A stretch of DNA of 64,000 bases. Source: Gammaproteobacteria bacterium (GTDB lineage: Bacteria; Pseudomonadota; Gammaproteobacteria; Acidiferrobacterales; Sulfurifustaceae). The notes below the pieces were generated by a model. The model saw only the letters and a program-made list of their open reading frames with translations, did not search any database and was not told where the DNA came from. Below, piece by piece: positions 13,483 through 32,432 of the stretch. The position numbers were made by a program, and so were the translations under genes. Within the stretch, counting starts at the first letter, position 1, and each line of letters starts with the position of its first letter. The stretch is taken from positions 28,975 to 92,974 of the forward strand of contig SCRL01000006.1 in assembly GCA_004298065.1 (NCBI GenBank). Direction: 5' to 3'.

Positions 13483-13512
13483 AGGCTATAACGCACACCA
13501 TTTTTACGGCTT

Positions 13513-13544: not shown

Positions 13545-13583
13545 GCGTCAAACTTAGATCATAAACTGGTTAAGACCGTCTGA

Positions 13584-15329: not shown

Positions 15330-16355
15330 TGGTATCTGGAGCTTCTTGTTAAGCACTTTGCCACGAAACTGCGGAAACCGGCTAAAAAATGCTTCGCCGG
15401 TAGTCAGGAAGAAATGTGTTAGGACCACGCGGTTTCCATCTATGCGCCCACAGAAAACCGCGTAACGCACGTCGCAGTGTCGAATCGGCTGCCGTCCGAT
15501 CTTCGGAACGTCAAGAGACTCGACGCTATCCGGTCGGACTAAACCAAGGTCGATGGTCGGAGAAGTCTGCAACTTTACCTCAAGCAGCTGATGACGTACG
15601 TCAGGGAATCGTCCGTCGTCCTGGTAGCTTCCGTAACCCAGAGCCTTACAAACCAGTCGGTGCAATGCCGCGCCTCGATTGCGCTCTTGGTCGTGGCCGG
15701 TGTCCCTGAAACTCGTTCCCACCAAACGGCTTAAACGCTTGAACAGTATCGTTATGGGGAGTAACTGACCTTCGCGAGGATGGTCGACTGGCGTAGCCGC
15801 GCTTTTTAGGTTAACCCTCCCAGATATCGACCGCCGCAACCGGGTGGTATCTTCGACAGCAATCAGTTCCGTCCGCTGTCCGCCAAGTACGCAACGCGCC
15901 TGATATTTCTGTGTGAGTGTCCCCGTAGTATCGAGTGAAGCCAGAGTGTCGCCGGTTACAACTTTCACTCTGGTGACAACGTCTTTTGCCGAGACGCGGA
16001 TCAGCACGTAACGTCGTGTCGGAGCAAGTTCTTGGTTCCAAACTTGGAGATTGTTGGCTTTCTGAACGTAAGTATCGAAAAACTGGCCCGGAAATCGAGG
16101 TTGTGTCCTTCGGAACGAAACCGGTACGGGATAACCAAGTGCGTGGCAAACGTGCGTCTTCACCACTTTCGAACGGGTCCGCAATGGCAGACCGGCCAAT
16201 GAGATACCTCGCAAGGCCTTGTTGAGAAGGGTTTCGAGTTCAGGCGTCGGAATCCACAAAACCGGATCACCGATCTCGATGGGATCGTAAACACTCAACC
16301 CACTTGATTTGATTGCTCTGACATAGCGCTGTGGATCATTCTTTTTGGCCACCAT
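15303..16355 (-). CDS. type II restriction endonuclease (PD-(D/E)xK-like)
   Basis: It is co-transcribed after a C-protein gene with a 20-nt overlap and converges on the methyltransferase gene with a 27-nt tail overlap. It has a candidate catalytic stretch FPDVRHQLLEVKLQ. Confidence 0.7.
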   Translation of the reverse strand: MVAKKNDPQRYVRAIKSSGLSVYDPIEIGDPVLWIPTPELETLLNKALRGISLAGLPLRTRSKVVKTHVCHALGYPVPVSFRRTQPRFPGQFFDTYVQKANNLQVWNQELAPTRRYVLIRVSAKDVVTRVKVVTGDTLASLDTTGTLTQKYQARCVLGGQRTELIAVEDTTRLRRSISGRVNLKSAATPVDHPREGQLLPITILFKRLSRLVGTSFRDTGHDQERNRGAALHRLVCKALGYGSYQDDGRFPDVRHQLLEVKLQTSPTIDLGLVRPDSVESLDVPKIGRQPIRHCDVRYAVFCGRIDGNRVVLTHFFLTTGEAFFSRFPQFRGKVLNKKLQIPLPADFFDR

Positions 16356-16620
16356 GAGGGACGCCGTCCTTTGTTAGGAGCTGTGGGACGGTTATCCCCA
16401 ATGCTGTCGCGAGCATCTCCAGCGTGCTCAATGTGACATTTCTTTCCCCCCTTTCAACCGCACCGATGTATGTCCGGTGCAAACTACAAATGTCGGCCAG
16501 GGCTTCTTGGGAAAGATGCTTGGCTTCGCGGAATTTCCGCAAATTATCGGCCAGGATTCGTGTAATCCCCTTACTTGGTTTTCGTAATGGTTTTGGGCGC
16601 ACGTGACCGTTTGAACACAA
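16336..16620 (-). CDS. restriction-modification controller (C) protein, XRE-type HTH
   Basis: LRKFREAKHLSQEALADICSLHRTYIGAVERGERNVTLSTLEMLATAL is a typical C-protein HTH. The listed start is a non-ATG codon, and an alternative GTG lies at 16602. Confidence 0.85.
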   Translation of the reverse strand: MCSNGHVRPKPLRKPSKGITRILADNLRKFREAKHLSQEALADICSLHRTYIGAVERGERNVTLSTLEMLATALGITVPQLLTKDGVPHGGQKE

Positions 16621-16652
16621 CCGTCCTGTATTTGAATTTTTCGGACAGTGAT

Positions 16653-16678
16653 GTCTTTGAGTCTACAGACTATGAGTA
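16653..16678 (-). promoter_or_regulatory. C-box operator upstream of the C-R operon
   Basis: GTCTttgAGTC-TACA-GACTatgAGTA. Two GACT-N3-AGTC-like palindromes are separated by 4 nt, the classic C-box layout, 30-50 nt upstream of the C gene. Confidence 0.6.
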
Positions 16679-16744
16679 GCGTGCTGACTAGAGGGAAGGG
16701 TCAGAAGAGTACTTCTTGCAGCAGGAGCGATGCTAAGCCCCGGT

Positions 16745-17815
16745 TTATTTTACGTAATACAGAAAATTCGCGTACGCCGCCTCGGCGACCTTGAGCCACT
16801 GGTTGCTGGCATCGGCGTATTTCTTCCAGTCGGTGTAAAGGCGCTTGAAGGCCGGATTCTTGCGCGCCTCGGCGTCGTACATCTCGAAGGCAATCTTGCG
16901 CGCGGCAAGCATCATGTCCTTGGGGAAGGCGTGCAGTTTCACGCCGGCCTTGAGCAGCCGTTGCAGCGCCGGCGGGTTTTTCATGTCGTACTCGGCCAGC
17001 ATGCGCTGGTTGGCCTCGGCGCAGGCGACCTCGAACGCCGCCTGGTACGGCGGCGGCAGCTCGCGCCACTTCTTCAGGTTCACGTAGAACGAAATCTGCG
17101 GCCCGCCCTCCCACCAGCCGGGGTAGTAATAGTGCTTGGCAACCTTGTGGAAGCCGAGCTTCTCGTCGTCGTACGGCCCGACCCACTCCGTGGCATCGAG
17201 CGCGCCGCGTTCGAGCGCGGGATAGATGTCGCCGCCCGCTAGCGTCTGCGGCACCACACCGAGCTTGGCCATGATCTGCCCGCCGAGGCCGGGAATGCGC
17301 ATCTTGAGGCCCTTCAGGTCGGCGAGCGATTTGATCTCGTGGCGGAACCAGCCGCCCATCTGCACCCCGGTGTTACCGCCGGGGAAGGAAACCAACCCGT
17401 GGTCCCGGAAAAACTCGCGCATCAGCTCGCGCCCACCGCCGGCGTGCATCCACGCGATCTGCTGGCGCGAGGTGAGCCCGAACGGCAGCGCGGTGTCGAA
17501 CGCGAACGCCATGTTCTTGCCGACGTAGTAGTAGCCCGCCGACTGGCCGCACTCGACGGTGGCGTTCTGCACCGCATCGAGCACCTGCAGCCCTGGGACG
17601 ATTTCGCCGCCGGCGAACACGCGGATCTGGAACTTGCCGGACGTGAGTTGCTGGATGCGCGCCGCGATCGCTTCGGCCGCGCCGTAGATGGTGTCGAGAC
17701 TCTTGGGAAAGCTTGAGGCCAGGCGCCAGCGGATTGTGGGCAGATCGGCAGCGAGGGCCGGCGACAGCGGCGCAGCCAGCAGGCCGGCGCCCTTGAGGAG
17801 GTCGCGTCGTTTCAT
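16745..17815 (-). CDS. dctP: TRAP transporter substrate-binding protein (Tat-exported)
   Basis: The true start is MKRRDLLKGAGLLAAPLSPALAA (twin-arginine signal) at 17815. The 570-aa ORF in the track is an Arg-rich over-extension. Confidence 0.88.
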   Translation of the reverse strand: MKRRDLLKGAGLLAAPLSPALAADLPTIRWRLASSFPKSLDTIYGAAEAIAARIQQLTSGKFQIRVFAGGEIVPGLQVLDAVQNATVECGQSAGYYYVGKNMAFAFDTALPFGLTSRQQIAWMHAGGGRELMREFFRDHGLVSFPGGNTGVQMGGWFRHEIKSLADLKGLKMRIPGLGGQIMAKLGVVPQTLAGGDIYPALERGALDATEWVGPYDDEKLGFHKVAKHYYYPGWWEGGPQISFYVNLKKWRELPPPYQAAFEVACAEANQRMLAEYDMKNPPALQRLLKAGVKLHAFPKDMMLAARKIAFEMYDAEARKNPAFKRLYTDWKKYADASNQWLKVAEAAYANFLYYVK

Positions 17816-17880
17816 GTCGAAAGGGCCGGCGGCATAGGCGGGAGCGATTCTAGCCCCAACCGGAACCGGACTGAAGCGAC

Positions 17881-18705
17881 TTAAGCGGTCTTGCGCGCAA
17901 CGACGAGGTTGCGCCCGCCGTGCTTGGCGGCGTGCAGCGCCTTGTCCACGCGCGCGAGCAGCTGCTCCAGGTCCTCGCCCTTGCGGAACTGGGTCAGGCC
18001 CACGCTGACGGTGAGCCGGAGCTTGGTGCCCTTGTCGGACGCGAACTCCCAGCGGTGGACGCCGGCGCGCAGGCGCTCGGCGATCTTGCGCCCGCCGACC
18101 AGGGTGGTGTGCGGCAGGATGATGAGAAACTCCTCGCCGCCGTAGCGCCCGACCTTGTCCGGCATGCGCAGCGCGTCCGACAGGATGCCGGCGAGCTCGG
18201 TGAGTATCTGGTCGCCGACTTTGTGGCCGTGGGTGTCGTTGATCGGTTTGAAGTGGTCGAGGTCGGCCATGGCCACGCACAACGGCGCGTTGTAGCGCTC
18301 CGACTGCGCCATGGCGTCGAGCAGCGCCACGGTGATGCCGCGGCGGTTCATCATGCGCGTGAGTGGATCGGTGATCGCCAGCCGCCCGAGGTTCTCCGCC
18401 CGGCTGGCCGCGAGGCGCTTCTCGTACTCGCGCCGCACCGGGATCAGCACCAGCCAATAGATCGGCGGCGCCACGATGACAGCGAGCAGCGCGGCATCGA
18501 GCAACATTGCGTCGATATCGCCGGCGGGATAGCCAAGCAACGCGAACACGCCCGTGGTCACGAACTCGGCCGCGAACACGATGGCGACGATGGCCGCCAT
18601 GGTCCGGGCAGCGGCTGCGGTTTCGTTGCGGATAGTCGACGGCATCAGCGGTGTATGAATTTCAGGAATGGCGCCGGCCCCCCACTTGCCCGGTACCCCC
18701 GTCAT
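17881..18705 (-). CDS. membrane-anchored GGDEF diguanylate cyclase
   Basis: Two transmembrane helices, then a GGDEF domain (RYGGEEFLIIL). An alternative start at Met 18645 is possible. Confidence 0.88.
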   Translation of the reverse strand: MTGVPGKWGAGAIPEIHTPLMPSTIRNETAAAARTMAAIVAIVFAAEFVTTGVFALLGYPAGDIDAMLLDAALLAVIVAPPIYWLVLIPVRREYEKRLAASRAENLGRLAITDPLTRMMNRRGITVALLDAMAQSERYNAPLCVAMADLDHFKPINDTHGHKVGDQILTELAGILSDALRMPDKVGRYGGEEFLIILPHTTLVGGRKIAERLRAGVHRWEFASDKGTKLRLTVSVGLTQFRKGEDLEQLLARVDKALHAAKHGGRNLVVARKTA

Positions 18706-18708
18706 CCT

Positions 18709-18739
18709 GGTCTATGGTCTCCTTGCCAGACTATAGACC
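18709..18739. repeat. 12-bp inverted repeat (hairpin or operator) between uvrD and the GGDEF gene
   Basis: GGTCTATGGTCT - 7 nt - AGACTATAGACC, with one mismatch. There is no U-tract, so a terminator role is uncertain. Confidence 0.5.
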
Positions 18740-18796
18740 ATGTCGGCGTTGCTGCCGGCGGAGATGCCACCGGTGGACCGAATATTCCCCCGGCGC

Positions 18797-20971
18797 CTAA
18801 AGGGTTTGCAGACGGGCGTAGCCGACCACAAGCCATTTGGTGCCCACGCTCTCAAAATTGACCTGCACCCGCGCCTGCGGACCCTGGCCCTCGTAGTGCA
18901 GCACCACGCCCTCGCCGAAGGTCTCGTGCCGCACCCGTCCGCCGAGACGCATGCCCGCCGCGGGTGCGCCCGATTCCGGCGCGGTTGAGCGTGTAACCGT
19001 GCCGGCGGCGCGGACTTCCTGGATCAAGTCGTCCGGCATCTCGCCCAGGAAACGCGACGGGCTGGTGTAGTGCTCCTGGCCGTGCAGCCGTCGCACCTCG
19101 GCATGGCTCAAAACCAATTGCTCGCGCGCCCGCGTCATGCCGACGTAGCACAACCGGCGCTCTTCTTCGAGCCGTCCCGGCTCTTGCAGCGAATGCTGAT
19201 GCGGGAAAAGCCCCTCTTCGAGGCCGGTGAGGAACACCAGCGGAAATTCCAATCCCTTGGCCGAGTGCAGGCTCATGAGCTGCACGCAGTCCTCCCACGC
19301 ATCGGCCTCGCCCTCGCCGGCCTCAAGCGCGGCGTGCGCCAGGAACGCCGCCAGCGGGTCGAAGCCGTCGGCCTCGTCATGTTCGAAGCCGCGCGCGGCC
19401 GAGATTAATTCCTCCAGGTTCTCCACGCGCGACTCGGCCTTCTCGCCCTTCTCTTTTTTATAGTGCTCGATGAGCCCGCTGAGCGAGAGCATGTGCTCGA
19501 CCTGCTCCGCCAGGACGAAACCTTTCGTCTCGTTCGCTAACCGTTCGATGAGGTCGAGAAAACCCTTGAGCGCCGTGGCCGCGCGCGCGGGCAATTGATT
19601 CTCGGCGAGCAGCTTCTGCGCCGATTCCCACAGCGACACGTTGCCGCTCTTGGCGTGCTCACGCAGCGTGTCGAGCGTTTTGGTACCGAGCCCGCGCGTC
19701 GGTTGGTTGCACACGCGCTCGAACGAGGGATCGTCGTGGCGCGACGCCATCAGGCGCAGGTACGCGAGCGCGTCCTTGATTTCCTGGCGCTCGAAGAACC
19801 GCAGGCCGCCGTACACACGGTACGGCACGCCGGCCTGGATCAGCTGTTCCTCGATCACGCGCGACTGGGCGTTGGAGCGATACAGCACCGCGGTGCTCGC
19901 GCGCGGATGCCCCTGCGCCACCCACGCCTCGATGCGGCTCACCACGAAGCGCGCCTCGTCGAGGTCGGTGTAGGCGCTGTAGAGCAGGATCGGCTCGCCC
20001 TCGGCACCCGCGGTCCACAGTTCCTTGCCGAGCCGGCCGCTGTTGTGAGCGATGACATGGTTCGCCGCTTTCAGAATGGTGCCGGTGGAACGGTAGTTCT
20101 GCTCCAGGCGGATCGTGCGCGTGCCGGGATGGTCGCGGTCGAAGCGCAGGATGTTCTCCACGCGCGCGCCGCGCCAGCCGTAGATCGACTGGTCGTCGTC
20201 GCCGACAACGAACAGATTCCCGTGCGCTGCGGCGAACTGTTCGAGCCAGCGGTACTGGATGCGGTTGGTGTCCTGGAACTCATCCACCAGCACGTGGCGG
20301 AAGCGGCCCTGGTAGTGCGTGCGCAGCGGCTCGTTGTCGCGCAGCAGCTCATAGGCGCGCAGCAACAGCTCCGCGAAGTCCACCACGCCGGAGCGCTGGC
20401 AGGTGTCCTCGTAGGCCTGGTAGACCCGCGCCAGCTGCTGCTGCGTGGGGTCGGCCGTCGGCGGCAGCTGCTGCGGGCGCCGGCCCTCCTCCTTGTGGCC
20501 GTTGATGAACCACTGCGCCTGTTTCGGTGGCCAGTAACCTTCATCGAGGTTCAGACCCTTGAGCACGCGCCGGATCAGGCGGTGCTGGTCCTCGGCATCG
20601 AGAATCTGGAAGCCCTGCGGCAGGCCGGCCTCCTTCCAGTGCGCGCGCAACAGCCGGTGCGACAGGCCGTGGAAGGTACCGATCCACATGCCGCTCACCG
20701 GGTGCTGCAGCATGCGCTCGATGCGCGTGCGCATCTCGGCCGCGGCCTTGTTGGTGAAGGTGACCGCGAGGATCGCGTGCGGCGACAGGCCCTCGACGCC
20801 CACGAGCCACGCGACGCGGTGCGTGAGCACGCGCGTCTTGCCGGAGCCGGCGCCGGCGAGCACCAGCAGCGGCCCGGGACCGGCGGTCACGGCCTCGCGC
20901 TGGGCGGGATTGAGATCGGCCAACAGGGGGGTTACATCCACGGACGCAATAATATCATTGCCGGCTTGCAT
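18797..20971 (-). CDS. uvrD: ATP-dependent DNA helicase II (UvrD/Rep superfamily 1)
   Basis: Walker A AGAGSGKT, the VDEFQDTN motif and the rest of the SF1 helicase motif set. The start at Met 20971 (MQAGNDII) is preferred over the ORF opening at 21091. Confidence 0.93.
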   Translation of the reverse strand: MQAGNDIIASVDVTPLLADLNPAQREAVTAGPGPLLVLAGAGSGKTRVLTHRVAWLVGVEGLSPHAILAVTFTNKAAAEMRTRIERMLQHPVSGMWIGTFHGLSHRLLRAHWKEAGLPQGFQILDAEDQHRLIRRVLKGLNLDEGYWPPKQAQWFINGHKEEGRRPQQLPPTADPTQQQLARVYQAYEDTCQRSGVVDFAELLLRAYELLRDNEPLRTHYQGRFRHVLVDEFQDTNRIQYRWLEQFAAAHGNLFVVGDDDQSIYGWRGARVENILRFDRDHPGTRTIRLEQNYRSTGTILKAANHVIAHNSGRLGKELWTAGAEGEPILLYSAYTDLDEARFVVSRIEAWVAQGHPRASTAVLYRSNAQSRVIEEQLIQAGVPYRVYGGLRFFERQEIKDALAYLRLMASRHDDPSFERVCNQPTRGLGTKTLDTLREHAKSGNVSLWESAQKLLAENQLPARAATALKGFLDLIERLANETKGFVLAEQVEHMLSLSGLIEHYKKEKGEKAESRVENLEELISAARGFEHDEADGFDPLAAFLAHAALEAGEGEADAWEDCVQLMSLHSAKGLEFPLVFLTGLEEGLFPHQHSLQEPGRLEEERRLCYVGMTRAREQLVLSHAEVRRLHGQEHYTSPSRFLGEMPDDLIQEVRAAGTVTRSTAPESGAPAAGMRLGGRVRHETFGEGVVLHYEGQGPQARVQVNFESVGTKWLVVGYARLQTL

Positions 20972-21029
20972 GCCGCTTGGCTCGGGGTAAGATGAATCCG
21001 GATTCAAGGCCAAGGAGTCACACAACAAC

Positions 21030-21362
21030 ATGAAACCCGAACGCCGCGACACCCCGCGCATCCCGGTCGCGCTCGAAGCGATCGTCAGCACCTCGAAGAG
21101 CGGTTACCAGCGCACCGTGACGCGCGACGTGAGCCTCGACGGCGCGTTCGTGGTCACCGGCAAGCAGAAGGTCGGCAAGCGCAAGCCGGTGGAGGTCGCC
21201 CTGAAGTTGCCGTTCGACGGCGAGGAGAAGTTCCACCGCTTCCGCGCCCAGGTCGTGCGCACCGCCGGCGGCGGCAGCGGCGTGCTGTTCGAGGGCGTGG
21301 ATTCCGAGGCCTACGCGGCGCTGATGAACCTGGTGTTTTCGCGCCAGGCCAAGGCGCGTTAG
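21030..21362 (+). CDS. PilZ-domain protein (c-di-GMP receptor-like)
   Basis: 110 aa with an N-terminal RRDTPRIPV (RxxxR) and a DVSLDGAFV (D/NxSxxG) motif pair. Confidence 0.8.
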   Translation: MKPERRDTPRIPVALEAIVSTSKSGYQRTVTRDVSLDGAFVVTGKQKVGKRKPVEVALKLPFDGEEKFHRFRAQVVRTAGGGSGVLFEGVDSEAYAALMNLVFSRQAKAR

Positions 21363-21382
21363 TTCTTTATGTAAAATTACAA

Positions 21383-22198
21383 TCAGGTGCTCGGAAAGAA
21401 TACCGAAGACGATTTCTTGTTACTCAAGTAGTCAGTGGTGAAACGCTTTAAATAACGCATATCATCGAGAGTAACCTCGTTTTCCGATCGGACTTCGGCA
21501 TCAACTAATTGAATTCCACCGCATTTCCTAAATAGCTTTCCAAGCTGGTCGATTACGAGCTGTGCCTTAGTGCGTAGTGAAGCCTGCTTATAGAGATTCA
21601 CAGGCATTACTGCATATAGATTAACTTTGTACGACTCATCTTCACGCACATCTACATCATCCGGCTCGATTCCGATCAGGATTGCGCTGATTTCAGCACC
21701 CTCCCTATTAAGAATCGATTCAATATTGTCTTTCACCTGCTCTAAACGGTTGAGGAAAACATCTGGAAACGCACTACGGTTGTAACGCTGCGCCAACCAT
21801 GAGCGCAACAGAGATACACTTTCCGATGGAAGGTGCGATTGTGGATCAGGTGTAATAGTTTCTAAGATGCGGCGATCGATGTGGTACCGATCACTTGCAT
21901 GGCCGATAAAGCTTGTATCGCACCCATCCACACGAATTTGGAAATCGATTTCTCTCGGGCTCTTCCCGAAAGTGCGCCCACCTTTCTTCTCCGTTCTCGG
22001 ATAGACAACGAAAAGCTCGACGGTGGGTTCCTTTTCGTACGATCCGTTCGTGACATCGCAATCGTGGCTAACAACCACGATGGAAGCGTCTAAACGAAGA
22101 GAAGACCGGATATTCTCGTCTAGCTTTGCGTGGTCGGCTTGTCGAAGTACGGAACCTTGACGCCATCCGTTGCGGCCGATCGGGGTATCGATCGGCAT
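21383..22198 (-). CDS. hypothetical protein (271 aa), third gene of an AT-rich operon
   Basis: Protein-like composition. It starts 3 nt after the upstream gene's stop. No motif assignable; the notable stretch is IVVVSHDCDV. Confidence 0.7.
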   Translation of the reverse strand: MPIDTPIGRNGWRQGSVLRQADHAKLDENIRSSLRLDASIVVVSHDCDVTNGSYEKEPTVELFVVYPRTEKKGGRTFGKSPREIDFQIRVDGCDTSFIGHASDRYHIDRRILETITPDPQSHLPSESVSLLRSWLAQRYNRSAFPDVFLNRLEQVKDNIESILNREGAEISAILIGIEPDDVDVREDESYKVNLYAVMPVNLYKQASLRTKAQLVIDQLGKLFRKCGGIQLVDAEVRSENEVTLDDMRYLKRFTTDYLSNKKSSSVFFPST

Positions 22199-22201
22199 AA
22201 A

Positions 22202-22951
22202 CTACTCCTTGTCGTGGTCGGGAAAACTCACGAGTGGGGCAATGGTGTCGAGATTGGCCTGGAACTCCTCGTTTGATACTGGCCTGAAACCCTTGGCACG
22301 CATTCGCTCGGCGATTGATCTACGTTGACGGGCTTCGTGAGCCGCTGTCACAACCGTACACATTTGGCGCATAGCAACTCGTACGCGTTGGTCATCGACA
22401 ACTTCGGCGGAAAGCAAATCGCTCAGCGACTTGCCCTTATCCACCGGTTGCTGAATGTACTTACCAATTGGCCATGAACACGCTTGATTCCAGAAACTGG
22501 CCAATCGACTCAAATGATCTATTCGGCGCAAACTGTCTCTGCGAGGAATTTGGCCATCCATCCAGTCATAGATTGTTTGCCGCGATGTCTTTAAAAAGGC
22601 TCCCAAATCGGCAATTGATACTCCCAAGCTTGCTCGAATAAAAGCGATCGTTTCCTGTGCGGTGTGTAGGGCCGCTGGTTTTTCCACAACGTCAGGCATG
22701 ATAAACAACAGATCATCTTTGGCGGAAACGTAATCACTGGATAACAACGCAGCGCGGTAGATACTGCCACTCGCTGTCATCGTGATAGCCATTGGTTCAA
22801 GTGGATACCCGAACCATGCCATTATTTCCATGCAGGAACGGGGAGGCACTGGATTAGTAAAGCGCGCAGCGGTTGTCGACTCGTCGAACCATAACGGGTC
22901 AAGCAACGTGCTGCTTCCAGTTGATAGTGTATCTAGTGCCATTTGTTCCAT
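22202..22951 (-). CDS. HTH-domain protein (249 aa), second gene of the AT-rich operon
   Basis: Central HTH-like segment SIADLGAFLKTSRQTIYDWMDGQ. It overlaps the upstream gene by 19 nt, and the start could be a few codons later. Confidence 0.7.
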   Translation of the reverse strand: MEQMALDTLSTGSSTLLDPLWFDESTTAARFTNPVPPRSCMEIMAWFGYPLEPMAITMTASGSIYRAALLSSDYVSAKDDLLFIMPDVVEKPAALHTAQETIAFIRASLGVSIADLGAFLKTSRQTIYDWMDGQIPRRDSLRRIDHLSRLASFWNQACSWPIGKYIQQPVDKGKSLSDLLSAEVVDDQRVRVAMRQMCTVVTAAHEARQRRSIAERMRAKGFRPVSNEEFQANLDTIAPLVSFPDHDKE

Positions 22952-23727
22952 GCGTAATCCGTCACGATCGTTTTAAATGCTTCTGAACTTATGTCATGTA
23001 GCCGATTCAAACGGCTTGTTACATCTTCCACGTTAAACTCCGTGTCCACCTGCGAGTAATGGTCCGTATCTAGAATAGCCTTAGGACGACCATCGGGGTG
23101 AGTACGACATGGAGTAAGTGTATGGTCAGCGAGATCCGGTGGAAGAATGGCGCTGCTCTGGTCTTGACGAAAACGCAACGTAAGTACGCCTTCTGTAGTT
23201 TTGATCCTTGCAACGGTTTGCTGCTGTCCAGGATTGGGACTGATCTTCCCGAGTGGGAACCCCAACAGGCTCTCTGTTACATACTGACGAAGCTGTTCCC
23301 CTTCATCAGGAGATATAAGATCAATATATCGAATCCCCACGCGACTTGTTAGCGCGATGCGCAATTCTTCGTGGATTTGTATTAGCCCAAGCCGCAGTTT
23401 CTCAAGAAATTCCTCGAAGGTCGTATAGTCAGTTGTGTGATACGTAATCGCATCTTCCAAAACAACGAATCCAGACCTGTTGGCACGGTCGCTAAAATCC
23501 CAACGAGGACTCGTGACAACCTGCACAAATGGACCACCAGCTGCCATTGGAACAGCCGCCTCTTGGGGCTGGGTATGCTGAAACCGTGGGTAATTTTGGC
23601 GAAGCCGTTCCTGAATGTTTGGAATGTATTTTTCCCCCAGCTTTGTAATTGCGCTGAACCGAACTTGAGCAAGCACGTAGACAACTGGGGCGTTAGTTAG
23701 CCGCCCGATTTTGTTTGATTTGGTCAC
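22933..23727 (-). CDS. TIGR04255-family-like uncharacterised protein (264 aa), first gene of the AT-rich operon
   Basis: LTNAPVVYVLAQVRF at the N-terminus, VGIRYIDLI in the middle and ILDTDHY near the C-terminus match my recollection of TIGR04255 hallmarks. GTG start. Confidence 0.65.
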   Translation of the reverse strand: MTKSNKIGRLTNAPVVYVLAQVRFSAITKLGEKYIPNIQERLRQNYPRFQHTQPQEAAVPMAAGGPFVQVVTSPRWDFSDRANRSGFVVLEDAITYHTTDYTTFEEFLEKLRLGLIQIHEELRIALTSRVGIRYIDLISPDEGEQLRQYVTESLLGFPLGKISPNPGQQQTVARIKTTEGVLTLRFRQDQSSAILPPDLADHTLTPCRTHPDGRPKAILDTDHYSQVDTEFNVEDVTSRLNRLHDISSEAFKTIVTDYAWNKWH

Positions 23728-24007
23728 AAGTGTTTCCCGGTCGTTATGACTGGATAAGACTGAAAGAGGGATGTAAACAAGTTTACATCAAATTTGACAC
23801 TTGCAACGAGGACTCGTTCAATTAAATAAGTATTTGATAAATAATGATAATATATAAAATTTAACGGGTAACAAATAAGTTTTAGCCAAATAAGGCGCTA
23901 ACTTGTTGATTCGCCATTAGCCCAGATTTACCTACCACGGGCTAAAGTCTTTGCCATCGTCGAGACGGAACAATAAAGTTGTTCCGACTAAAACAAATGA
24001 GGTCAGC
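23728..24007. repeat. AT-rich non-coding block with same-orientation (A/C)AA(A)TAAG repeats; possible transposon-end or TnsB-site region
   Basis: Copies at 23824-23830, 23871-23879, 23887-23894, 23970-23978 (ACAATAAAG) and 23992-24000. There is also the palindrome ATGTAAAC-AA-GTTTACAT at 23771-23788. Confidence 0.4.
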
Positions 24008-25858
24008 TCAATCTCCGGTTCCTTGGCCTGAAACGAGCTCTTGAATAACTGAGTTAAGTCTCGGACTGAGCTCCTTACCTAAAAGTCTAGACAGGTGCTT
24101 CAACACCCAATCCTTTAGTGGCAACCCCCTATCCCTCGCCTGACTTGCTGCCGCTCGCAAACGCCTCTCACGTGAATCATCGAGCGACGGCTCGGAGTAT
24201 TCATTAAGAACTGCCCGGCAGAGTGGCAGGCGATCAAGATAAGAACATATCGATCGTGGAAGCCCCGATGCGTTGACTATGGTTACCGGAGTTACGCGTC
24301 GGGGTAGTTTCCATGCCTTAACTTTCTGGGCGGCCACTCTTAACACCTTGCTCCACTCCATGTCGCGTGCCTGCCAGTCGATCCGGTTGCTTGGCTTGCG
24401 CCTCGCACTTCCGAACTGTGGCTGGGCGAATAACCAATCCCTGTCCCAGCGCCGCAGCCTCTTGTAGAGGCTGCCGTTCATTTTGCGAGCAAGGACACGC
24501 CTTCGATTGGGCACCTGTACTAGCAGCTTCACCCACTCTTGCCTCCACTGTTCTATTAGGTTGCTCGAAACCTGGCTTGCGGGCGAATTCCCCGTAATAA
24601 GCTGTTTTGCAGTTTTAAAGGCGATGTCCAATTTCTTCGCGATTGCCCAGACGCTCAGACCGCTTCGCCGAAGCCGCTTCGCCTCGTGTACCCAGGTCGG
24701 CCCGAGTCCGCGTGTGCACCTCACGACCGGCAGGCTGGGGTCTACATCGGACGTGTGCGAAAACGTGAAGCAGTAACCGCAGCTGCACTTCGCGGAAGCC
24801 ACGAGTTCGCCCGAAGGTGAGACTCTAACCGATACCGATGTCCGTTTGATTGGAAGCCGTTCCTCGTGCGTTGCGTAAGGATTTGGGCACTTCCAGGGCC
24901 CAAGACCCAGGAACATCTTTTTCGAGGCATGAACCGGTAGGCTTTCGAGAAAGATCTGCATCAAGGCGTGTTGGAGCGAATGATACGAACGCGAATTGGA
25001 TCGACAACGAAAAATATTTCTGACCCAGTTCGCTTCGTTGCCTAGCTCGATCCCGCAACCCTGCCTTGAAAGCAGGGATTCGCCGTAAAACCCGACGAAG
25101 GCGCGTTCGATCCCCGCGGAAGATAACAAGGTCGCGCGGTTGGAGAAACCGCGTTCCAGGGCCGCCAGGCGGTAAACTTGCGGCACGTTTTCTCGCGGCC
25201 AAAGCGGTATGCACCCCGAAAGCATCTCTCGGCAACGCTTCGCTATCTTGAGGGCGTTCGCCGCCTCGGTCGTCCCGAGATCCGGGGCGTGCGCCGATGC
25301 GGTATCGGCCGTGACGTCCGTCGCGTCTATGAAATACGCCCTGAAGCTCGTCGGCTTCATCAGCGCGGTCGACTCGACGAGTGGGGTTCCGTGGTCCGGA
25401 CAAACGAGCACTCCGGGAATCTGGTGGGTCCGGCGCCAATATGTTTCTCCATGAAGGGACAGATCGTGTGCTCGACAGGTGGGACAAAAACGGAGAAATC
25501 TCGGGGTTCGGACACGACTTCCGTTCACGCCAAGCCGCGTGTGAACACCTACGCCGTTATCGGACCTCAATGCTCTGAGACACCGAGCGGCGCGCACGCC
25601 GGGCACATAGCGGGCGTAGTATGGAAACAGCGTCAACCGATCGGCGATCTCTTCCCCGGTCATGCCCCAAACCAGCCATGTCCGCTCGGATACCGCGTTC
25701 AATGAACTCGGCAAGTCTATGCTGGAAATCCTTATTCTCCTCCCGAAAACATCGGCCACCACAGCACCAGCCACCGAAGCGCCCGTTCGATTCAGATAAC
25801 GCGTGATGACGCTGTACAGGAGTTCGTCCGGATAAGGGGCGGGCAGGTGGCACAGCAT
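24008..25858 (-). CDS. tniQ: TniQ/TnsD-family target-selection protein
   Basis: The N-terminus MLCHLPAPYPDELLYSVITRY and the zinc-ribbon cysteines (CPTC ... CPDH) are typical of the TniQ domain. The long C-terminus has HTH-like segments, as in TnsD. Confidence 0.85.
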   Translation of the reverse strand: MLCHLPAPYPDELLYSVITRYLNRTGASVAGAVVADVFGRRIRISSIDLPSSLNAVSERTWLVWGMTGEEIADRLTLFPYYARYVPGVRAARCLRALRSDNGVGVHTRLGVNGSRVRTPRFLRFCPTCRAHDLSLHGETYWRRTHQIPGVLVCPDHGTPLVESTALMKPTSFRAYFIDATDVTADTASAHAPDLGTTEAANALKIAKRCREMLSGCIPLWPRENVPQVYRLAALERGFSNRATLLSSAGIERAFVGFYGESLLSRQGCGIELGNEANWVRNIFRCRSNSRSYHSLQHALMQIFLESLPVHASKKMFLGLGPWKCPNPYATHEERLPIKRTSVSVRVSPSGELVASAKCSCGYCFTFSHTSDVDPSLPVVRCTRGLGPTWVHEAKRLRRSGLSVWAIAKKLDIAFKTAKQLITGNSPASQVSSNLIEQWRQEWVKLLVQVPNRRRVLARKMNGSLYKRLRRWDRDWLFAQPQFGSARRKPSNRIDWQARDMEWSKVLRVAAQKVKAWKLPRRVTPVTIVNASGLPRSICSYLDRLPLCRAVLNEYSEPSLDDSRERRLRAAASQARDRGLPLKDWVLKHLSRLLGKELSPRLNSVIQELVSGQGTGD

Positions 25859-25859
25859 G

Positions 25860-27428
25860 TCACGCTACCTTTACATCGCGCTCGACAACGCAAGCCGAGG
25901 CCAGCGCATCCGCCGGGCTGACGCCGGAAGCAGCCGCCGACTCCACGATTTCCTTGAGGCTCTTGCTGGTTGTCTCCGCTTTTGATCCCCTGTCTTCATC
26001 CAACCCCTCAAGGATCATCCGCACGGCGGCGGCGCAGGTGAGGCCCGGGGTGGAGTCGAAAAGCGAGTTCACGGCTTCCTGTACACGGTCCTGCTCCAGC
26101 CCCGTCGCGATGAGCGCCGAGATCGTATTAAGCCGCTCTGCGGAACTCTGATTTCTCGACTGAGCCTGCGCCTTCAACAAGGAGAGTTTCGCCTCGCGAT
26201 CAACATCCTTGTCGAGCTTGATAAGCAGGTCCTCATAGTTCTTGATGGCCTCCTTGTTGCCCGCCCTGAGCGCCGCCAGCATCGGCGCGACCAGTTTAAA
26301 CATCCTTGATGCGACATCTTCGATCAGCGCCTCCGAGATGCACTCAGTGCCGTCGCCGATGGCCTGCATCTGCGTCAGCTGAAACAGCCTGACGACGAGG
26401 GCGTGGATTCCCTGGGTATGCTTGTACATGCAGGATTCGAGCGCCGGGGTCAACGACGCGACTTGCGCCGTCCACTGGTATTCCCAGAGCCTCCCCAGGA
26501 AATGCATCCACTCCTCACCTTTGGACAAGGCATCCCAGACGTAGGTGCCTTGGTCGCCGACGCGGCGCGCCTCACGGAAGGTTCTCTCGAGCAGGCCCAG
26601 CGCGCGCGGCGTGCCCACCGTCACGACGGGGATCTTCGCCTCGTTCGCGAAGGTCACGAAGAAGTTGAGCATCTTCGCCTGACCCACGCCGCTCGCGTCA
26701 AGAAGGTTTTGGATCTCGTCGATGACCAGAACCCCGAGGTGGTGCTGCGCGGCGATCTTGGCCACGTCGAGAATGAGTTCGTCGATGGTGCGGCTGCGAC
26801 CGATGGACTTGCGGTAAGAGGTTCCGAGCATGTCGTCGAACTTCGCGAGCATTCCGCGCAGCAGCTGCTTGAGGCTGCCATCCAAGGGGCAGTCGAGCTT
26901 CATCCAGACCACCTGCACGAAGCGATGCCTTTCATGCCGGACGATCTGCGGAAGGAACGAAAGCGCGCGCTCGACGACCGTCGACTTGCCCACGCCCGAC
27001 ACGCCGAAGAGCGCGAACGACGGCGCGGTGGACGGCGTCGAGTGGCCCAACGCGCGGATTTCTCCCGACATCGCGTCGCGGTAGAGACCCACCAGCCACC
27101 TCCGGTACCCGTCTTTCAAAGGATTGCGGTGCGTGTAGCCGGCCCTGACGATGAGGCCGATCTTCTCGATGACGTCGAGATGGCAGGGCAGCGGCTCCAA
27201 GTACGCGCCGAGCCGCGATATCGCGAGCATGCGCGCCGCCTTGGGAAGCTTGCGCTCGTCGTCGGTGATGCACGGATACCGTCCGAACTCGTGAATGAGT
27301 TCTCCGGCCTGACGGAACGGCGGCAGCGCCTCGATGAGGGGGTTGCCCACGTGCTCCGGCAAGTCCGCCGGCCGGTATTGCGCGTCGAGCATGTTGAACG
27401 GCACTTCGATCCGCGGTTTCTTAGCCAT
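25860..27428 (-). CDS. tnsC: TnsC-like AAA+ ATPase
   Basis: Walker A GVSGVGKST and Walker B LVIDEIQ. The position between tnsB and tniQ fits. The start at Met 27428 or 27452 overlaps the tnsB stop. Confidence 0.85.
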   Translation of the reverse strand: MAKKPRIEVPFNMLDAQYRPADLPEHVGNPLIEALPPFRQAGELIHEFGRYPCITDDERKLPKAARMLAISRLGAYLEPLPCHLDVIEKIGLIVRAGYTHRNPLKDGYRRWLVGLYRDAMSGEIRALGHSTPSTAPSFALFGVSGVGKSTVVERALSFLPQIVRHERHRFVQVVWMKLDCPLDGSLKQLLRGMLAKFDDMLGTSYRKSIGRSRTIDELILDVAKIAAQHHLGVLVIDEIQNLLDASGVGQAKMLNFFVTFANEAKIPVVTVGTPRALGLLERTFREARRVGDQGTYVWDALSKGEEWMHFLGRLWEYQWTAQVASLTPALESCMYKHTQGIHALVVRLFQLTQMQAIGDGTECISEALIEDVASRMFKLVAPMLAALRAGNKEAIKNYEDLLIKLDKDVDREAKLSLLKAQAQSRNQSSAERLNTISALIATGLEQDRVQEAVNSLFDSTPGLTCAAAVRMILEGLDEDRGSKAETTSKSLKEIVESAAASGVSPADALASACVVERDVKVA

Positions 27429-29616
27429 TTTGGCCTCCTTCGGGTTGCGCATCGCGCGTGCTTTTCAACAGCGCCAACGCGTTCTTGGATCGTTGGATAG
27501 CGAGGGATGATGTCTGCGCGGGCGGGTCCGGCGTGTCCGCGCCCCGGCCGCTTCCCGCCCCACCCAGGAAGAGCGTTTCCGCGCCGCGCTGGATTTCCTT
27601 TTCGTCGGCCCTGTTGTTTCGGATGTCTGACGTCCTTTTGGACTTCGGCGTATGCGCATCCGCCACGGCGCGCGTGGCCTTCCTCGCATTGGACTCGATC
27701 TCGGCCATGCGCTGGTCGATGAGCAGCCGCTTCGCCTGACGGTCGTTCTCGCCCGCGGCCTCGGCGCGCTTCGCGGCGAGCCCGAGTTCCTCGACCTCGA
27801 AGAGTGACTTGCCCCCGTAGACGGCGCTGGGGTCGAGCAGCCTGCACGGCTCGAAACCGCGGGGCAGCTTGGGACTGCGCAGGTAGACGTTCTCCATGTT
27901 TCGTGGGTCGAACGACACGTCGACCGTCCACTCGTCTCGCCGCGCCCTGGCGAACCAGTCCTCGCGCATCGCCGTGGGGCATGTGTAGTAGCCGTTCTTG
28001 AACTTGATGCCCTTCGCCGTCACGCGCGCGGTGTCCGAAGGCATCACGTTCAGCGACACTTCCTCGACGGTCAGCGTCTTGAGAAAGCCACTGCGGTTCA
28101 CAACACCCCACTCCCAGAGATCGATGGGCGCGGCCGACAGCCCGTCGGTCACCATGTCGGCCGGCAGACGCACGTCCCGGATGGGGGTGAAGTTGTGCTC
28201 GAGGACGGCGTAGATGACCAGCTGCGTGAACTCGTGCAGGTCGAGGGCGGCATCCAGCCGGTAGTCCCTCGATCCCCGTTCGTTGAAGTCCTTCTCGACG
28301 TAGCCCGGCGCGAACTGCCTGAACTTGGCCGGCACGATCCCGAACCGGCGCTCGACCATGGCCTTGAGGTCGGCCCGCCCCGGACTCGCGTTTTCGATAT
28401 CGATACCGAGCGACTTCACGATGTTCTCCGCGAGGGATACGCTGATAAGCTCGCCCCGGTCTCCCATAATGCGCCGGGGCGCGTAATGCGAGGGCCAGTC
28501 CGCCTCGACGATGTCGATGCCATGGCGCCGGCAGAACTCGACCTTCGGCGTGACCATGTTGACCAGCGCCATCATCGCCCCGGCCCACGAGGGACCCTCG
28601 AAGCCGACGTACACCCCCGTGATCAGGCGGCTGAAGACGTCGACGACGAAGTAGATGACGGGACGCCCGACGATCCGCCGACGGTCGAACTGCGAGACGA
28701 GATAGACGTCGGCGACGGTCGCGTCGATCTGGAAGCGGTCCCCGGGCCCCAGCACGTCGCCATCGGCCGCGCCGAGCAGCTCGCGTTCGTGCAGGTTCCA
28801 GTCCTTGTCGCCGTTACGCCGCCGTCGGATGTAACGATGCGGGAAGTGGGTGTCGATGTAGTACTGCAGTTGCCGAACCGTGGGCTTCGCGTCCGGCTCG
28901 ACCTCGAACGCCACCACCCGGTGGTTCTCGTCCTTGACGCGCCTGCAGAAGTAAAGGCCGACGATGTAGTCCAACGCCTCCCGCAGGGTCGGCTGCTTGC
29001 GCGACAGATAGAAGTCCGCGCCGACGCGCAGCATCCGGCGTATCTCCTCGGCGGCGGCGTTGATTCCAACTCCAGGGGTGACGGTGCGGGGCGCGCCGAC
29101 CTTCTTCTTGCCCGCGAGATCGCGCCGCTTGCCGGGCGATCCGCAGTTCGCGTAGTCGGTGCGTAGCGCCTCGAAGGTCATCCCCCGCTTCCAGTACAGC
29201 TTCAGCAGGGCGCAGATCGTCTGGCGTGTGCTCTTGATTTCCTCCAGCCGCTTCTCGATCAGCGCCTTGCGGTCACGCTTGTAGAGAAGATCGCGGGCGT
29301 TGTCGCTTCCAACGAGAGGCGCGATCAGCGCGTACCGCTGCTCGTGCCGCGTGGCGGCGGCACCGGTCTCGACCACGCGAACGCCCGGGCGCGCCCATGG
29401 ATCGTTCGGCTCCACGACGAAGCGGCCGTTCTCGGGGTCGAGCTCCTCCTGCAGCCGGTGCGACGGCATGGGATAGGGCCAGGAGTCGTCGTCCATGCGA
29501 CACAGCCAAGTGTGCCGCGTAGCGGGGTCGATAAAAACGATGCGCAGCAGCGCGTCCTGTTCGCGGTCCCTGACGAGCATCCGCTCGACGGGCAACACCG
29601 TGTGGTTCGTCGTCAT
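27421..29616 (-). CDS. tnsB: TnsB-like DDE (Mu-type) transposase
   Basis: About 730 aa with an rve-type core (RFQIDATVADV ... MGDRGE). The start at Met 29616 (MTTNHTVLP) forms an ATGA overlap with the tnsA stop. The ORF opening at 29772 is an over-extension. Confidence 0.88.
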   Translation of the reverse strand: MTTNHTVLPVERMLVRDREQDALLRIVFIDPATRHTWLCRMDDDSWPYPMPSHRLQEELDPENGRFVVEPNDPWARPGVRVVETGAAATRHEQRYALIAPLVGSDNARDLLYKRDRKALIEKRLEEIKSTRQTICALLKLYWKRGMTFEALRTDYANCGSPGKRRDLAGKKKVGAPRTVTPGVGINAAAEEIRRMLRVGADFYLSRKQPTLREALDYIVGLYFCRRVKDENHRVVAFEVEPDAKPTVRQLQYYIDTHFPHRYIRRRRNGDKDWNLHERELLGAADGDVLGPGDRFQIDATVADVYLVSQFDRRRIVGRPVIYFVVDVFSRLITGVYVGFEGPSWAGAMMALVNMVTPKVEFCRRHGIDIVEADWPSHYAPRRIMGDRGELISVSLAENIVKSLGIDIENASPGRADLKAMVERRFGIVPAKFRQFAPGYVEKDFNERGSRDYRLDAALDLHEFTQLVIYAVLEHNFTPIRDVRLPADMVTDGLSAAPIDLWEWGVVNRSGFLKTLTVEEVSLNVMPSDTARVTAKGIKFKNGYYTCPTAMREDWFARARRDEWTVDVSFDPRNMENVYLRSPKLPRGFEPCRLLDPSAVYGGKSLFEVEELGLAAKRAEAAGENDRQAKRLLIDQRMAEIESNARKATRAVADAHTPKSKRTSDIRNNRADEKEIQRGAETLFLGGAGSGRGADTPDPPAQTSSLAIQRSKNALALLKSTRDAQPEGGQNG

Positions 29617-30437
29617 GCCGCACCTCCTGATATAGAAAGGTCTCCGACCGGCAACTCCTGGATGAACCGCGCGCGAAGGTCCGCGCGGACTTGCTTCGTG
29701 CCCAGCAGCCGCCGTAGCGCCGCCAGCGCGATGCCGGGCCTGCGCCCGAGTTTTCCGTCGATCGCGCCGCACGCGATCCGGACTGGCGCATGCGGCCGTG
29801 CCTGCCGCTCCATGGCGAGCTCGCGATAAACGGCCATGTCGGCGCCGTCGTCAACGGTGTTTCCCGCATCCGGCTGGCCTGAATCCAAGATCCACGCGAG
29901 ATTCCGCGTGAAGGTGGTCTTGACCTCGCGGTCGGTGAGCACGCTCCACGGCACCTCGTGGCGTTCCCAATACCGCCGCTCTATCTCGAGCTTCTCGAGA
30001 GTCCGATCGTCGGCGAGCGCCTCGGCCTGCTTCACCGCATAGGCCGCGGTTTCGGTGCCCCGCGACGTGCGCCGGGTCAGAACCAAGTCGGTTGTCATCA
30101 CCCACAGCGCGCCGCTGATTGGGTCGACCGGATGGCGCACGTTGCACAGCGCCGCGATCTCGAGCGTCTCTCTCCGGTCGACGAGAGGAAATTGCTCACG
30201 GATGTCGACTACCTCGTCGTCCCACCATTGCAGGAGGAACGCGTAGTACTCGTTGTCGGAAAGCAGGTGATGCGTCCGACCGGTCTTCGGGCAGTAGACC
30301 CGGTGAACGCGCCCGAGCGACGGTACGTCGGCCACCGTCAGCCAGGGCTTGTAGCTCGCGCCCGTGCCCTTCCCGCGACCCTGCTTGATGAAGCGCAGGA
30401 TCTTCTGCTCAGTGAAACCGTATCGGCGTCTCGCCAT
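29613..30437 (-). CDS. tnsA: TnsA-like transposition endonuclease
   Basis: 274 aa. The N-terminal KQGRGKGTGASYKPWL and the LSDNEYYAFLLQWWDDEVVDIREQ restriction-endonuclease-like fold are typical of TnsA. Confidence 0.85.
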   Translation of the reverse strand: MARRRYGFTEQKILRFIKQGRGKGTGASYKPWLTVADVPSLGRVHRVYCPKTGRTHHLLSDNEYYAFLLQWWDDEVVDIREQFPLVDRRETLEIAALCNVRHPVDPISGALWVMTTDLVLTRRTSRGTETAAYAVKQAEALADDRTLEKLEIERRYWERHEVPWSVLTDREVKTTFTRNLAWILDSGQPDAGNTVDDGADMAVYRELAMERQARPHAPVRIACGAIDGKLGRRPGIALAALRRLLGTKQVRADLRARFIQELPVGDLSISGGAA

Positions 30438-30648
30438 AAATCCTCCTTAGATTCGCCTCGACGAGCGTTCGGCTTTCCTCGCTCGCGACATGCGTCGAGA
30501 TGACGTGGCAAGCGACCGCGTCGGTGACGCAGTAAACGATCGGCCGTTCGACGGACTTGGCGTCGCGCCCGGCCGCCACGAACGCATCGGCGCGAAAGGC
30601 CTCGATGCGGCAACGGGCGGCGCGGCGCGGAATCTGATTCGCGCGCAT
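30409..30648 (-). CDS. small hypothetical protein (79 aa) upstream of and overlapping tnsA
   Basis: A strong Shine-Dalgarno (AAGGAG) lies 6 nt before the ATG at 30648. The gene overlaps the tnsA start by 29 nt. No family recognised. Confidence 0.45.
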   Translation of the reverse strand: MRANQIPRRAARCRIEAFRADAFVAAGRDAKSVERPIVYCVTDAVACHVISTHVASEESRTLVEANLRRIYGETPIRFH

Positions 30649-31366
30649 GAGCACTCCTTCGCCGACGGGTCGGCGAAACATGAAAAAGGAAGGAGCTTGA
30701 CTGCGCGGGAGGCGTGGCGGATACTGATGTTGCTAGACAGTCGGTATCCACCGACCGCGCCCCTGGCGGCAAGCTCCGGTTTGTCGTTAGGGGTTTTTTA
30801 TTTCCCCCTCCAACCAACTCCAATCGTCGTTACTTCATATCTCCTCCTCGCGACAGATCGCGCGATATTTTAGGAATCGTCCGGCGACGGAACTGCTCGA
30901 AAAAACCCGGTAAAAACAGACTCCAAACGCCATGCACACACGCGCATCGCCGCGTGATTCAGCGGCCTTCCGGATCGGATTTGCATATTTTACTACAAGA
31001 CCGCGCGTTCCGAATAATGCGAAGCGCGTTTTCTCGTGCATGTCTTCACACGCATGAGAAATGACGTGCGACGTTATTCCATAGAGATTAGGTCTTCGTC
31101 CGTCGTTGTCGCGAGATCGATTCGCGCGATGTTTTCGCGCGCGACCGTCAACATGTACAGAATGTGTACCGGTTGAGTTTTTGTTAACCGGTCACAAAAA
31201 ATAAACGGCGCCCCCGACGGGACAAGCGGGTTGCGTGCTCACCTGCATGAGCAGCAATTGACCGGCCACCGTCACGCGCATACCCTCATCCGCATGACCA
31301 AGCTCCGGATGACAACACTCCGAGCGCGGCGCGAGATCGTGTTGGCCGCCCCGGATCAGATTCTTC

Positions 31367-31822: not shown

Positions 31823-31849
31823 TGAGGCGATGTACACGGTGGTCGTGAT

Positions 31850-32424: not shown

Positions 32425-32432
32425 ACCGACCG

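Follow-up and report, generated by a model that had tools for sequence, protein, structure and literature searches.

What is the AT-rich group of three genes that interrupts the GC-rich backbone beside a Tn7-like transposition core in contig SCRL01000006.1 of the gammaproteobacterial assembly GCA_004298065.1? Here, we present an analysis of this trio in a 64,000-nucleotide stretch of the contig, referred to as the window; coordinates are positions within it unless another locus is named. A previous reading of the locus, made from its letters alone and called the sequence-only reading below, had proposed that the trio is an undescribed defence or toxin-antitoxin (TA) module and that it is either cargo of the Tn7-like element or a remnant of an earlier insertion at the same site. 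Based on comparisons with other genomes, metagenomes and plasmids, the trio is best read as one instance of a three-gene cassette that is self-contained, occurs widely and spreads horizontally. As the most likely mechanism, we propose a tripartite TA-like or abortive-infection module, a proposal to which we give about an even chance of being right. The genes and borders of the cassette are as follows:

22933-23727, minus strand: gene 1, a TIGR04255 protein of 264 amino acids with a GTG start
22202-22951, minus strand: gene 2, a helix-turn-helix (HTH) protein of 249 amino acids
21383-22198, minus strand: gene 3, a candidate effector or toxin of 271 amino acids
23728-23864, minus strand: leader/promoter region of the cassette, AT-rich (30% GC) and common to related strains
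21363-21382, no strand: distal edge of the island, the 20 nucleotides between the gene 3 stop and the convergent PilZ stop

The trio consists of foreign, operon-like, low-GC genes. We exactly reproduced the open reading frames of the sequence-only reading, with their positions, their shared strand, the 19-nucleotide overlap of genes 1 and 2 (22933-22951) and the 3-nucleotide gap between genes 2 and 3 (22199-22201). The GC profile likewise reproduced the abrupt switch to AT-rich DNA that had been described about 20 nucleotides past the PilZ stop: the PilZ gene ends at 21362, and the GC content falls from 0.64-0.69 to 0.44-0.54 immediately beyond it. The island as a whole (21363-23864) has 47.7% GC and a GC content at third codon positions (GC3) of 0.46-0.52; the backbone has 66.8% GC, and the GC3 of uvrD is 0.87. 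In the leader, a perfect 9-bp inverted repeat, GATGTAAAC-2-GTTTACATC, lies at 23770-23789 and is a candidate operator. The repeat is not kept in L043, which carries a copy of the trio that is 75-84% identical. A scan of the island for promoters and terminators gave nothing above chance, with a weak sigma-70-like match at 23874-23847, and Rfam and tRNA scans of the island gave no matches.

Whether the three genes occur together in other genomes had been set beforehand as the observation on which the module proposal would stand or fall, and they do so at 18 of 18 loci. In a genome scan by gene 3 motifs, which used a subset of the gene 3 alignment, the order and strand of genes 1, 2 and 3 were kept in all 18 of the species-representative genomes to which gene 3 by itself had led. 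These genomes span at least nine phyla; they include Planctomycetota, Cyanobacteria, Actinomycetota, Myxococcota, Acidobacteriota and Chloroflexi, and also Gemmatimonadales, Chthoniobacterales and Idiomarina. The trio has the same order and strand at four unrelated metagenome loci, where BLASTP E values lie between 1e-35 and 1e-54 for genes 1 and 3 and between 1e-11 and 1e-14 for gene 2, and it is found on plasmids of Klebsiella, Acinetobacter, Rhizobium, Chroococcidiopsis, Paenarthrobacter, Sphingomonas, Kocuria and Sinorhizobium. A TIGR04255 protein is encoded in 21 plasmid records, 11 of which also gave a tblastn match to gene 3. E. coli genomes gave no DNA match to the Klebsiella copy, and no fourth gene is conserved in the sampled neighbourhoods. 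Compared with the copy in L043, the ratio of nonsynonymous to synonymous substitution rates (dN/dS) is 0.10 for gene 1, 0.21 for gene 2 and 0.12 for gene 3, which argues that all three genes are maintained by purifying selection. Together with a gene order that recurs in dozens of unrelated loci, these ratios indicate that the trio consists of real genes and not of chance open reading frames. No ordinary housekeeping function emerged for them from profile searches, in line with what the sequence-only reading had expected.

Gene 3 is the candidate effector. The sequence-only reading could assign it to no recognisable family, and this was borne out: gene 3 has no match in Pfam (E <= 0.1), NCBIfam or PADLOC, and it corresponds to PHROG 34320, which is annotated as function unknown. 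In a full HMMER profile search, we found 3117 cluster representatives (clusters at 50% identity), of which 1306 have E <= 1e-30; the gene 3 family is thus large and unnamed. The idea that gene 3 is a rare orphan, suggested by 40 word-indexed relatives, was overturned by this search. The AlphaFold2 (AF2) model of gene 3 has a mean predicted local distance difference test score (pLDDT) of 90.4 and consists of two domains, ~1-137 and ~146-260. The N-terminal domain is a MazF/CcdB-like SH3 barrel, with the strand order and the closing C-terminal helix as in MazF/CcdB. Accordingly, the top PDB matches in Foldseek are all MazF proteins (from S. aureus, M. tuberculosis and E. coli) with a probability of 0.99-1.0, E values of 2.6e-3 to 1.6e-2 and template modelling (TM) scores, normalised to the target, of 0.54-0.63. 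The C-terminal domain is alpha/beta, ferredoxin-like and has no informative structural match. The conserved residues are located in the N-terminal domain and the linker: W12-R13-Q14-G15, C47-D48, W134, R141 and F148 are invariant, S44, D46, E57-P58, E61 and the RYxRSAFPD motif (R138 to D146) are nearly so, and R82 is also conserved. A sequence search of the PDB with gene 3 returned nothing meaningful, and a viral structure library gave weak matches only.

Gene 2 is a candidate repressor and antitoxin, as judged from its sequence relationships and its place in the operon. It comprises a variable N-terminal third (~95 amino acids), a central HTH (~100-150) and a conserved helical C-terminal part. 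The central HTH recognised in the sequence-only reading holds up, being kept across 28 homologues of gene 2: Pfam searches of these 28 proteins gave HTH_17 in 19, HTH_3 in 14 and the antitoxin Xre-like-HTH family PF20432 in 6, and gene 2 itself has sub-threshold HTH matches only, at residues 103-147. Against the PDB, the gene 2 profile matches MbcA (6fkg_C) with an E value of 0.0088, and hhalign aligns the two with a probability of 92.5% over residues 108-156. The hhalign alignment ends at 156, and the 28 homologues gave no Pfam match to a C-terminal toxin-binding domain of the DUF2384 type. As in the layout of type II TA systems, the gene for the DNA-binding protein lies directly upstream of that for the effector, with the HTH gene, a 3-nucleotide gap and then gene 3.

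Gene 1 had been placed in the uncharacterised TIGR04255 family in the sequence-only reading on the strength of a few strings of residues. An end-to-end match to the NCBIfam model confirmed this assignment, with 171.5 bits (curated cutoff 30), an E value of 2.7e-50 and coverage of model positions 1-251 of 252, and the homologues of gene 1 bear the TIGR04255 name in their source records. No Pfam family covers gene 1, its PHROGs entry is annotated only as unknown, and a sequence search of the PDB gave nothing meaningful. The AF2 model (pLDDT 92.5) is a pseudo-two-fold alpha/beta sandwich of the type seen in TBP and S-adenosylmethionine decarboxylase (AdoMetDC). The Foldseek matches are AdoMetDC/prozyme (E 6.6e-5), a phage S-adenosylmethionine (SAM) lyase, TBP and EspG; at a TM score of ~0.3, only the fold class can be read from them. 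R133, P196, D220 and D222 are invariant, and the motifs GLRYxD, LPPDL and LDxDH are conserved. In the model, R133, D220 and D222 are placed together with R185, H223, T98 and Q21 on adjacent strands, which suggests that gene 1 has a binding or catalytic face. TIGR04255 is absent from the supplement of the Tn7 cargo paper, and a literature search found no paper mentioning TIGR04255 or its synonyms. PADLOC also has no model for the trio, and the description of the module as undescribed agrees with these searches.

The most informative variants of the cassette are those in which the third gene is a different one. On two Ralstonia replicons (L038 and L045), the TIGR04255 gene and the HTH gene are followed by another third gene, which overlaps the HTH gene by 4 nucleotides:

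L038, 3974-6182: Ralstonia plasmid variant cassette with a TIGR04255 gene, an HTH gene and a Zeta-family gene
L045, 3974-6200: Ralstonia plasmid variant cassette with the same three genes

In L038, the third gene encodes a P-loop kinase of the Zeta_toxin family (PF06414, E 9.1e-10, 38.7 bits with a cutoff of 22.3); the third gene of L045 is assigned to this family as a homologue of the L038 gene and not by a Pfam match of its own. A Zeta toxin in the third position argues that position 3 behaves as a swappable toxin slot. A third variant, on a plasmid of Rhizobium sp. CB3060 (L047, 3686-6129), has a TIGR04255 gene followed by two genes for proteins of 293 and 218 amino acids, neither of which is matched by the profile of gene 2 or of gene 3. 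It is gene 1 that stays constant across these variants. The L047 variant adjoins a multiubiquitin / ThiF / DUF6527 cluster and an IS110 element, and a phage-integrase fragment adjoins the variant cassette in L038.

Several copies of the cassette lie among genes of known defence systems or on mobile DNA. In a Kofleriaceae metagenome-assembled genome (L021, 2266-17405), the trio is part of a type 2 bacteriophage exclusion (BREX) operon with the order PglX, PDC-S49, trio, PglZ, BrxD and BrxHI; such embedding in BREX was seen at one locus only. Auxiliary or accessory effectors embedded in BREX loci have been documented (PMC12839542; PMC8565348), and the former paper, on BREX diversity, does not mention MazF, PemK, TBP or AdoMetDC. 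In the sample ERR10750395, if the contigs L012 and L044, each of which has a part of the trio, are adjacent, the trio is flanked on one side by a cluster of a DruE-like helicase, an Eco57I methylase and UvrD and on the other by SbcCD-like, BrxR, HNH and JAB genes. Some copies lie in prophage-like DNA or near methylases, and others beside insertion sequence (IS) elements (IS66, IS110 or IS3), integrases or recombinases. Plasmid copies are found near conjugation or mobilisation genes, and some copies lie inside integrated elements.

How might such a cassette work? We propose that genes 1 and 2 form a constant part and that position 3 is an effector slot, in which the gene 3 family is usual, Zeta occasional and unrelated genes were seen once. 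According to this model, gene 2 would bind the promoter region and repress the operon and, alone or with gene 1, would hold gene 3 inactive. A trigger, e.g., phage infection or loss of the element, would then free gene 3, and its N-terminal site (WRQG, SHDCD, EPxVE and RYxRSAFPD) would hit an essential target and stop growth. Gene 1 may be a ligand-binding or enzymatic partner that serves as sensor or co-neutraliser. A bolder version, which we put forward tentatively and think somewhat doubtful, is that TIGR04255 and the Xre-type HTH protein are a sensor-neutraliser pair with interchangeable toxins (the gene 3 family, Zeta and others), which would make up a new family of three-component abortive-infection systems that extends across phyla. 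Gene 3 would then represent an enzyme lineage that is new within the MazF/CcdB fold and that combines an active site of acidic residues and cysteine with an additional domain for regulation.

Several observations weigh against a TA or defence function. In most of the ~25 neighbourhoods that were sampled, the adjoining genes are ordinary ones (for PolA, MetRS, transporters or kinases), and clear defence neighbours occur in ~4-5 of the ~25, which is a raw count and a modest enrichment. The BREX locus, L012/L044, L047 and the copies near methylases are individual cases with defence neighbours, and the plasmids and the copies beside IS elements are cases on or near mobile DNA; most neighbourhoods are not obviously defensive. 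None of the three proteins has a match in PADLOC-DB v2.0.0 with E <= 1, and the cassette is rare in phages (2 of 50,697 records). For gene 3, hhalign of the family against an alignment of MazF, Kid and EndoA, in which the sequences are approximate, gave a probability of 0.2%; because a link to MazF at the sequence level is lacking, we consider gene 3 a case of fold resemblance and not of membership in the MazF/PemK family. Such membership was rejected also because no Pfam match to PemK was found. The catalytic Arg and Thr of MazF cannot be mapped onto gene 3, and its conserved acidic residues, Cys and WRQG differ from the chemistry of MazF. What gene 1 does is conjectural, as its fold matches have a TM score of ~0.3. 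Finally, in L042, from a groundwater metagenome, a frameshift in the cassette (1017-1760) cuts gene 2 after the HTH and leaves gene 3 intact. If real, this frameshift speaks against an essential antitoxin role of the C-terminal part of gene 2; it may be an assembly error, as the sister contig L043 has an intact gene 2. Of the original proposal of a defence or TA module, then, the MazF-like fold, the MbcA-like HTH, the Zeta swap and the BREX copy speak in favour, and the many non-defence neighbourhoods do not.

Mobile TA and defence cassettes are known as a category, and the composition of the present one is new. As in MazEF, Kid-Kis and CcdAB, a small, mobile and patchily distributed module has a gene for a DNA-binding protein at near-zero spacing before the gene for a protein that, in its modelled N-terminal half, has the same SH3-like barrel and C-terminal helix. 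In contrast to these systems, gene 3 lacks sequence similarity to the known toxins and has, at 271 amino acids, an extra alpha/beta domain; it conserves WRQG, SHDCD, EPxVE and RYxRSAFPD and not the catalytic Arg and Thr of MazF; its partner, gene 2, has an Xre-type HTH and not an AbrB or ribbon-helix-helix domain; and the cassette has an obligatory third conserved gene for a protein of 264 amino acids. With Xre-RES, MbcTA and ParST, the cassette shares an HTH and a following helix that align with those of MbcA and an antitoxin gene that precedes the effector gene. However, the C-terminal toxin-binding domain of those systems was not matched in the searches with gene 2 and its 28 homologues, gene 2 has an extra variable N-terminal region of ~95 amino acids, and the effector is not an ADP-ribosyl/NAD enzyme of the RES, MbcT or ParT type. 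Like the cassette, omega-epsilon-zeta, pasABC, paaR-paaA-parE and toxin-antitoxin-chaperone systems have three genes transcribed together and a DNA-binding component of their own, and the Ralstonia variants share with omega-epsilon-zeta a Zeta-family toxin, encoded by the third gene; however, gene 1 is unrelated to epsilon, SecB-like chaperones and PasC, and the effector in this window is not Zeta. Finally, the cassette resembles the PDC candidates in PADLOC and the BREX accessory effectors in that one copy of the trio lies between PglX and PglZ beside PDC-S49, but no trio protein matches the models in PADLOC-DB v2, and this embedding is seen in one locus.

If confirmed, a TA-like or abortive-infection function would give a function to two uncharacterised families, i.e., TIGR04255 and the gene 3 family with its ~3100 clusters at 50% identity, and would add a widespread three-gene module to the catalogue of TA and anti-phage systems. 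It would also mean that the MazF/CcdB fold has been re-used with a different chemistry, and that a constant pair with a swappable toxin is a further case of the combinatorial design known from Panacea-type antitoxins.

Other explanations account for parts of these data. The division of labour could be a different one, with gene 1 as the active enzyme or toxin, acting through an R/D/D/H site, and gene 3 in another role (adaptor, sensor or immunity partner). Of the trio, gene 1 shows the strongest conservation (dN/dS 0.10) and is the sole invariant member across the variants, including L047; it has invariant polar residues on adjacent strands and weak fold matches to SAM-handling enzymes. We nevertheless think this explanation unlikely because it is the third and not the first position that is swapped for a known toxin, because the fold matches of gene 1, at a TM score of ~0.3, include the non-enzymes TBP and EspG, and because a partner that stays the same while effectors vary would more typically be a sensor or a neutraliser. 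It is equally improbable, in our view, that the cassette is no conflict system and serves an everyday accessory purpose, regulatory or metabolic, as an enzyme, its HTH regulator and a partner protein that have spread horizontally. No conserved metabolic neighbour or transporter accompanies the cassette, copies lie within a BREX operon and defence islands, a Zeta toxin substitutes for gene 3, the HTH of gene 2 is of the antitoxin type, the fold of gene 3 is toxin-like, and the distribution over phyla and plasmids is patchy; the housekeeping and transport genes in many neighbourhoods, the lack of a PADLOC match and the vertical retention under purifying selection at glmS across diverged lineages (see below) would fit such a unit.

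The plasmid occurrence (21 records with TIGR04255, gene 3 in 11), the conjugation and mobilisation genes nearby and the copies inside integrated elements would all be expected of a pure addiction or stabilisation TA module for plasmids and islands that has no anti-phage role. The copies embedded in BREX and in other defence clusters would not, nor would the stable chromosomal residence at glmS, and we consider this explanation very unlikely. Addiction and anti-phage roles are not mutually exclusive. The tripartite TA-like or abortive-infection module remains the mechanism that we favour for the cassette, and the fourth alternative concerns not what the trio does but how it came to lie where it does, i.e., whether it is cargo of the adjacent Tn7-like transposon. 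That core, which is given as context and lies outside the cassette, has the following genes:

24008-30437, minus strand: Tn7-like core, with TnsABCD Pfam matches
24008-25858, minus strand: tniQ/tnsD, with Pfam TnsD and TniQ
25860-27452, minus strand: tnsC, with Pfam TniB/AAA_22
27421-29772, minus strand: tnsB, with Pfam Mu-transpos_C
29613-30437, minus strand: tnsA, with the Pfam N- and C-domains of TnsA

The trio is directly tniQ-distal, in the same orientation and 280 nucleotides from the tniQ stop, and no clear left end is seen between tniQ and the trio; moreover, the cargo of Tn7-like elements is rich in defence genes (PMC8649781). As cargo, the trio would lie between tniQ and the left end and would move with the element. 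Nevertheless, contigs of related strains (L005-L007) have the order atpC, glmU, glmS, 14 nucleotides, trio, PilZ and UvrD without tns genes, and a more divergent lineage (L042-L043) also has glmS, the trio and PilZ without tns genes. In the divergent lineage, the trio and PilZ show similar levels of synonymous divergence (0.69-1.16 and 0.83, respectively), which suggests a long vertical residence at this site. Homology to the Tn7-free strains stops at 23862-23865, ~143 nucleotides past the tniQ stop, as would be expected if the edge of the transposon lay there. The GC3 of the trio (0.46-0.52) differs from that of tnsB and tnsC (0.83-0.85), with tniQ at 0.64, and tns genes are found at 0 of ~30 other trio loci. 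The 20 nucleotides between gene 3 and PilZ hold no inverted match to the tnsA-side region and could accommodate a Tn7 left end only if this end extended into gene 3. For these reasons, we think it decidedly unlikely that the trio is cargo. The site downstream of glmS is the classical attTn7 position. The trio is therefore best seen, on this comparative evidence, as foreign DNA that has occupied the hot spot downstream of glmS for longer than the Tn7-like core alongside. Of the two origins that the sequence-only reading had left open, the data agree better with an earlier occupancy of the site, and cargo is disfavoured by the trio at glmS in tns-free strains and by the lack of ends. That a Tn7-like element inserted later beside a long-resident foreign cassette at this site bears on how transposon cargo is delimited.

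In our search for the ends of the Tn7-like element, no inverted matches were found between the tnsA side (30440-31320 / 31320-34400) and 10000-24100 / 23800-24060. A TAACAAA string shared by both edges was noticed by eye only and is too weak to be called an end. glmS and glmU are absent from the 64-kb window, as is the glmS tail string; on the far side of tnsA, four small genes are followed by a cobalamin biosynthesis operon. Together, the absence of glmS and glmU and the position of this operon suggest that the DNA was rearranged and that one breakpoint was the attTn7 site. The independent contig L016 is 100% identical to 23683-34836, arguing that this junction is not peculiar to the window. 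An exact 31-mer from the tnsA side had no metagenome match, relatives of TnsA (L035-L037) have no glmS beside them, and relatives of TnsD on plasmids are at most 30% identical. The related strains are 99.2% identical to the window across the trio and 92-93% identical in the flanks. Such a block of high identity amid a 92-93% backbone suggests recent recombination across the island. Compared with L005, the 99.2% block covers 20961-23864 (the uvrD start, PilZ and the trio), and an indel of ~155 bp lies near 20800-21000.

Within the Tn7-like core, tniQ/tnsD has a GC content of 57% compared with 62-66% in tnsA, tnsB and tnsC, a hint that the targeting gene is perhaps mosaic, and the junction of tnsB and tnsC (27400-27800) has a strong T-over-A skew, with an AT skew down to -0.43. 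The four small genes between the tnsA side and the cobalamin operon (31367-33572, plus strand) encode a protein of 151 amino acids, a DUF6557 protein (77 amino acids), a protein of 228 amino acids and an HTH_3 protein of 150 amino acids, the last of which corresponds to PHROG 1381, 'plasmid antitoxin with HTH domain'. This segment has a strong A-over-T skew (0.33-0.42), and the gene for the 228-amino-acid protein contains an internal repeat of ~118 bp (32483-32597 and 32884-33001).

Elsewhere in the window, a second low-GC island (52%) lies at 13584-16355 between dctM and dctP. It contains a plus-strand gene for an Eco57I/N6_Mtase/TaqI_C methyltransferase of 581 amino acids and a convergent gene for a protein of 350 amino acids without a family. 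At the same spot between dctM and dctP, the related contig L005 instead has a RelE/HTH_3 pair and a DUF2321/Ymh protein. The differing contents suggest a variable hot spot inside the TRAP-transporter cluster. Finally, the window contains an anti-hemB (Burkholderia RNA 7) small RNA at 5600-5690, which is suggestive of a host of the Burkholderia type, and a cobalamin riboswitch at 45797-46011.

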